Part shown: positions 23,971 to 23,999 of the stretch, one piece after another | Position numbering within the stretch: position 1 is the stretch's first letter | How the letters are laid out: the number at the start of each line of letters is the position of its first letter | From: Escherichia coli | Lineage (GTDB): Bacteria > Pseudomonadota > Gammaproteobacteria > Enterobacterales > Enterobacteriaceae | Reading direction: 5' to 3' (one strand) | DNA: 30,752 nucleotides | Assembly (NCBI RefSeq): GCF_003334315.1 | Contig: NZ_QOWR01000055.1 | The notes under the pieces: model-generated | The model's database searches: none | Seen by the model: the letters and a program-made list of their open reading frames with translations, nothing else | Told to the model about the DNA's origin: nothing | Translations under genes and position numbers: made by a program

Positions 23971-23999
23971 GGCCAGCATCGCAACATGCTGGCCTTTTT
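23971..23999 (+). terminator. Intra-operon hairpin plus T-run between mprA and emrA (candidate attenuator)
   Basis: ggccagcatcgc/aacatgctggcc near-perfect stem at 23971..23994 followed by ttttt (23995..23999); 48 bp after mprA stop and about 50 bp before emrA start. Confidence 0.55.

Follow-up and report, generated by a model that had tools for sequence, protein, structure and literature searches.

The window, by which we mean the whole stretch of DNA that was analysed, comprises 30,752 nt of an Escherichia coli contig (NZ_QOWR01000055.1, assembly GCF_003334315.1). The part considered here is a chromosomal locus of the E. coli K-12 type with the gene order ygaZH-mprA-emrAB-luxS, and its sequence is identical to that of K-12 MG1655. 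The ygaZ, ygaH, mprA, emrA and emrB genes are all encoded on the plus strand, and luxS on the minus strand. In NC_000913.3, mprA occupies positions 2810770-2811300, which sets the coordinate offset (2810770 is window position 23393), and the emrA ATG is found at window position 24050. A hairpin between mprA and emrA is surrounded by plus strand genes and is thus located inside the classical mprA-emrAB unit. The junction has the following features:

23393-23923, plus strand: mprA (emrR) coding sequence, the gene closed by the terminator
23924-23970, plus strand: mprA 3' UTR before the hairpin, with the boxes CGCUCA and UCCAGAUU and an A-rich run (from alignment identity)
23971-23994, plus strand: terminator hairpin, 9-bp stem GGCCAGCAU/AUGCUGGCC with loop CGCAAC (from the sequence, the terminator scan and RNAfold)
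23995-23999, plus strand: U5 tract, with a published RNA 3' end at the last U (23999, MG1655 2811376; Term-seq of Adams 2021)
24009-24023, plus strand: second hairpin GUCGGC-UCA-GCCGAU, in the emrA read-through leader (from the 76-genome alignment)
24033-24052, plus strand: emrA ribosome-binding region (GAUCGUGGAGAA) and start codon, 99% identical across genera

An earlier reading of this DNA, made from the sequence only, had pointed to a terminator-like hairpin with a T5 tail between mprA and emrA. Such an element is present at 23971-23999, according to the sequence itself, RNAfold and a terminator scan, and reads GGCCAGCAT-CGCAAC-ATGCTGGCC-TTTTT. The coordinates and the T5 run had been given correctly, but the spelling of the stem had not: the 3' arm is acatgctggcc instead of gcatgctggcc, and the stem has 9 bp and not 11-12 bp. 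The stem is perfect, contains six G-C pairs and closes a 6-nt loop. It begins 48 nt beyond the mprA stop codon and is directly adjoined by the T5 run, which ends 50 nt upstream of the emrA ATG and is followed by the bases GGCAAG. The U tract is therefore short, with U in five of eight positions, and this fits a partial efficiency of termination.

Fold prediction, which had been proposed as a check, returned the 9-bp stem for positions 23971-23994 with a free energy of -16.7 kcal/mol (z = -3.0 relative to dinucleotide shuffles, 1 of 200 of which was equally stable). In the terminator scan of positions 22500-27500, the site ranked first among 17 candidates. In the whole window, counting both strands, there are five sites that combine a hairpin (dG <= -14) with a T5 run, compared to 0.85 on average in 40 windows simulated with a Markov model, and the 23971-23999 site is the joint second best of the five. 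Intrinsic terminators were taken to have a stem of about 5-14 bp, a loop of 3-8 nt, and a U tract within 0-2 nt of the stem. The site has the GC-rich stem-loop and the adjoining U tract of such terminators, together with an in vivo 3' end and a transcript of matching length, which are discussed below.

The promoter scan did not identify a sigma-70-like site on the plus strand between 23432 and 24408. A TTGGCA at 23998, noticed by eye as part of a possible internal emrA promoter, was rejected, because it is not accompanied by a usable -10 element and is not conserved. The emrAB genes thus appear to lack a promoter of their own, and emrA is likely to be reached solely by polymerases that read through the terminator.

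Two further hairpins with T or U runs are found downstream in the window. A 10-bp hairpin at 26786-26809, flanked by the stop codons of emrB (26777) and luxS, has T runs on both strands and looks like a two-way terminator. Adams 2021 (PMC7815308) lists a strong minus strand 3' end at 2814159, which is window position 26782. The hairpin GGCCACUCACGAGUGGCC at 27475-27492 and the U run behind it form the terminator of the MicA small RNA, which is annotated at MG1655 2814802-2814874 (window 27425-27497).

Transcript ends at the hairpin

The Term-seq data of Adams et al. (eLife 2021, PMC7815308) contain a plus strand RNA 3' end at MG1655 position 2811376. With the offset given by mprA, this position is exactly window position 23999, the final T of the run. 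The end is listed in Supplementary file 1 of that study (sheet LB OD 0.4) with a read count of 861, and the flanking sequence is given as CTGGCCAGCATCGCAACATGCTGGCCTTTTT on the upstream side and GGCAAGCAGG on the downstream side. Its class, 'orphan', means merely that the end lies more than 50 nt beyond the end of a gene. The count is low, and the end appears in the LB OD 0.4 sheet only, one of three growth conditions. In the same supplement, there is no Rho-termination region at 2,811,0xx-2,811,6xx.

Chen et al. (PNAS 2025, PMC12704781) assign a Rho-independent terminator to the mprA-emrA junction, and cite the Term-seq signal between the two genes. In their northern blots, the main mprA RNA is a ygaH'-mprA species of ~900 nt, not the 3.5-kb operon RNA. 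They place the start site in codon 49 of ygaH, predict a length of 888 nt for the ygaH'-mprA transcript, and report no terminator within early emrA. In the window, ygaH codon 49 corresponds to positions 23111-23113, and a transcript from 23112 to 23999 has exactly 888 nt. The location of the terminator between the repressor and the pump genes explains the 0.9-kb length of the main mprA RNA.

The hairpin is therefore the already published Rho-independent terminator of the E. coli mprA-emrA junction: the element is the same in both papers (PMC12704781, PMC7815308), since the 3' end at 2811376 is window position 23999 and the 888-nt transcript ends here. Its recognition from the sequence is a correct but ordinary finding. 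The earlier proposal that an intrinsic terminator releases most transcripts after the repressor gene agrees with the Term-seq end at 23999 and with the main RNA of ~900 nt. The published end also contradicts the one outcome that had been named as damaging to this proposal, a lack of 3' ends at about 23999.

In Salmonella, deletion of emrR is published to increase emrA and emrB expression 5.7-5.9-fold. This fits two pump genes that are fed from the emrR promoter by read-through. A literature search of limited coverage did not find an in vitro termination assay or a read-through measurement for the mprA-emrA site. In the available portions of the two papers on the terminator (PMC12704781, PMC7815308), cross-genus conservation, differences in the U tract and the neighbouring conserved blocks are not described.

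Conservation of the hairpin and its U tract

For comparison, 80 mprA loci from other genomes were collected, and 76 sequences were aligned. In 70 of the 80 Enterobacteriaceae loci, the arms GGCCAGC...GCTGGCC occupy the equivalent position, and the free loop measures 4-10 nt. The other 10 loci have variant stems, several of them with compensatory changes or G-U pairs, such as GGCCUGCAU/AUGCAGGCC in one locus (L076) and AGCCGG/CUGGCU in two (L077 and L081). The stem is GCCAGCGC/GCGCUGGC in Pantoea, Erwinia and Kalamiella, and GGCCAGCG/CGCUGGCC in Shimwellia. An unrelated 13-bp stem is present at the same place in the bee-gut strain ESL0689. In the 76-sequence alignment, the terminator stem is 96% paired, and three pairs have changed on both sides. 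Identity among the 76 genomes is 97-99% in the stem arms and 54% in the loop, compared to 67% at neutral 4-fold degenerate sites of mprA. Through compensatory changes, the structure of the hairpin has been preserved in Enterobacteriaceae and Erwiniaceae alike, and this is new here.

The layout is different in the Yersiniaceae Serratia and Gibbsiella. There, the gene for an outer-membrane efflux protein follows mprA after 21-28 nt (L086 1220-1244, L087 1217-1248), in an operon that resembles emrCAB, and there is no hairpin after mprA.

The U tract varies from genus to genus. Escherichia and three Kosakonia-like genomes have the tail UUUUUGG, and in Pantoea and a single Erwinia the run is UUUUU. 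UUUCUGA is the tail in the majority of the remaining genera (59 loci), among them Salmonella and Klebsiella, and the tail of Raoultella is UGUCUGA. In four loci the tail is UGUCUGAU, with an extended stem instead. With a UUUCUGA or UGUCUGAU tail, the conserved hairpin would terminate less well or not at all. Terminator strength thus probably differs between genera, and is probably weaker outside Escherichia.

We considered whether the U5 tail might have become a barrier to ygaH transcription after acquisition of ygaZH. This idea was dropped, because ygaH is also located upstream of mprA in about 27 loci with UUUCUGA-type tails, and there is consequently no specific link between the stronger tail and ygaH.

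In two E. coli genomes, the region is altered by additional DNA. In the urinary tract infection strain M45 (L083 1710-2510, NZ_CP080119.1), an IS1 element has been inserted directly after the terminator, at the place of window positions 23993-24001, with a 9-bp target duplication CCTTTTTGG. The hairpin is intact in this strain, and separated from emrA. In strain STK78-E (NZ_CP162185.1), a 1001-nt query covers 1091 nt in two pieces, with ~90 extra bases within 23300-24300.

Mechanism and alternative explanations

The data are very probably explained by a leaky Rho-independent terminator within the transcription unit of mprA and emrAB, and a constitutive one is the best reading. Transcription of mprA would begin at two sites, a promoter repressed by MprA and the start site in ygaH. 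At 48 nt past the mprA stop codon, polymerase would have made the G+C-rich hairpin and would be located at the five-U tract. The hairpin would then form in the exit channel, above a weak rU:dA hybrid, and the majority of polymerases would release the RNA at the last U, at 23999. A minority would continue into emrA and emrB, presumably because the U tract is just five residues long and followed by GG. According to this mechanism, the terminator would make repressor mRNA much more abundant than pump mRNA, and pump expression would equal promoter activity multiplied by the read-through fraction. Of this model, the hairpin with its U tract, an RNA 3' end in vivo, the main isoform of ~0.9 kb and the structural conservation are observations. 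It is likely that a fixed fraction of polymerases reads through, and that release is intrinsic and not due to processing.

The 3' end at 23999 could, as an alternative, result from exonuclease trimming after a stop or cut further downstream, and the hairpin could be conserved for the protection of the mprA mRNA. Term-seq is unable to separate termination from trimming to a stable hairpin, a point on which Adams 2021 (PMC7815308) concur. A protective role would also agree with the persistence of the hairpin where the U tract is interrupted (the UUUCUGA loci) or lost (the four UGUCUGAU loci, and ESL0689 with UGAUAAAG). However, the end coincides with the final U of a canonical hairpin and U5 signal, and not with the base of the stem, which is the usual stall point, so that trimming fits less well. 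Moreover, the data of Adams 2021 contain no Rho-termination region nearby, and Chen et al. report no terminator in early emrA. Trimming therefore appears improbable.

A regulated attenuator, in which a ligand, a protein, a small RNA or the translation state blocks the hairpin and thereby switches read-through into emrAB, is also a quite improbable explanation. Its appeal comes from the location upstream of regulated pump genes and from the unusually conserved blocks that flank the hairpin. The accessible part of a preprint on CCCP evolution (bioRxiv 10.1101/392977) adds six mutations, selected as adaptive under CCCP, in the mprA-emrA spacer (window 23924-24049). The assignment of the Term-seq end to one growth condition could be taken to point in the same direction, but is most simply attributed to a read count near the detection floor. 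Against an attenuator, the pairing probability of the terminator stem stays at ~0.98 when 45-300 nt of upstream RNA are included, and fold prediction gave no antiterminator that competes with it, so that regulated read-through is without support so far. An Rfam search of positions 23200-24300 gave no match at E <= 1. The mprA stop codon, 48 nt upstream, is too distant for a terminating ribosome to reach the stem.

A leader peptide was considered as well. The sole ORF across the hairpin, with 21 codons (MTGQHRNMLAFLASRSAQPMS, ATG 23964 to TAA 24029), crosses both hairpins of the spacer, but its start codon is not conserved: it is ATG in E. coli only, and CTG or CCG elsewhere, other Escherichia included. 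The ORF is therefore probably not a gene. The suggestion of the sequence-only reading that read-through may be regulated thus found no backing in the predicted folds, in Rfam, or in the conservation of the crossing ORF.

A signal that acts as DNA, be it a palindrome bound by a protein or a repeat of the REP type, is extremely improbable. Both arms do have nearly the same sequence in many genera. However, their variable spacing (4-10 nt) and the compensatory changes, which preserve pairing and not sequence, point to a hairpin in the RNA and not to a DNA site with fixed spacing. The 103-nt region was found in 5418 of 5426 E. coli genomes, with a median of one place in each (highest 2), and is thus not a REP or other dispersed repeat.

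A constitutive leaky terminator need not be the only control element in the spacer. The second hairpin (24009-24023), which is not followed by a U tract, is 94% identical and 98% paired in the 76 genomes, with two compensatory pairs, and a different hairpin, CCAGU-CUC-ACUGG, takes its place in Shimwellia. The boxes CGCUCA (23934-23939) and UCCAGAUU (23944-23951) have identities of 0.91 and 0.88, compared to 0.60-0.71 in the linkers and 0.67 at neutral sites. They are part of the mprA 3' UTR, which is 76 nt long and has only U5 as its tail, whereas a stable short RNA derived from a 3' UTR and bound by Hfq or ProQ would end at a terminator with a long U tail. It is conceivable, but on balance unlikely, that the 126-nt mprA-emrA spacer as a whole is a conserved composite control region that extends beyond the terminator.

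In the read-through RNA, the boxes could pair with the start codon and Shine-Dalgarno sequence of emrA (24034-24056), which would enclose the terminator and the second hairpin in a loop. This would place two successive limits on EmrA synthesis, termination and then a closed ribosome-binding site. Ribosomes that finish mprA might open the emrA site, in a form of long-range translational coupling. Alternatively, the 3' UTR of the terminated mprA RNA might act on the emrA site in trans. The pairs between the boxes and emrA are kept in 67-76 of the 76 genomes at most positions (59 and 30 of 76 at the two weakest), and the pairing is part of the minimum-energy fold in about 60 of 77 leaders. In Shimwellia, a different anti-SD sequence, CUUCUCC, is found at the same place. 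Compared to shuffled sequence, the duplex is marginal (median z = -1.55), about one in two substitutions within the boxes disrupts a pair, and the pairing is not seen in Pantoea. The modelled pairing may reflect translational occlusion or coupling, and should be regarded as a lead, not a result.

Significance and comparison with known systems

The EmrAB-TolC pump exports uncouplers, nalidixic acid and other drugs, and MprA controls capsule, motility and virulence genes in addition to the pump. Because of the terminator, the textbook 'emrRAB operon' yields mostly repressor mRNA, with the output of pump set by the polymerases that read through. A prediction is that efflux would rise, with the repressor left untouched, in mutants with a weakened hairpin or U tract, or with an insertion immediately behind them. 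For E. coli K-12, the terminator, its 3' end and the resulting transcript are all known, and the comparative data add only modest new detail.

The mprA-emrA element resembles the trp and pyrBI attenuators, and the sugE guanidine riboswitch (included in a table of PMC7815308), in the location of a terminator upstream of regulated genes. Unlike in these systems, neither an antiterminator fold, nor a leader peptide, nor a known aptamer was found at mprA-emrA. A closer similarity exists to partial intrinsic terminators inside operons, of which the rplL-rpoB attenuator and the rpsU-dnaG terminator of E. coli are examples. As in these two cases, a hairpin and U tract between co-transcribed genes halts most polymerases, and makes expression from one promoter unequal. 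In contrast to both, the upstream gene in the mprA-emrA case is the operon's own repressor, and the terminator therefore biases the ratio of regulator to pump.
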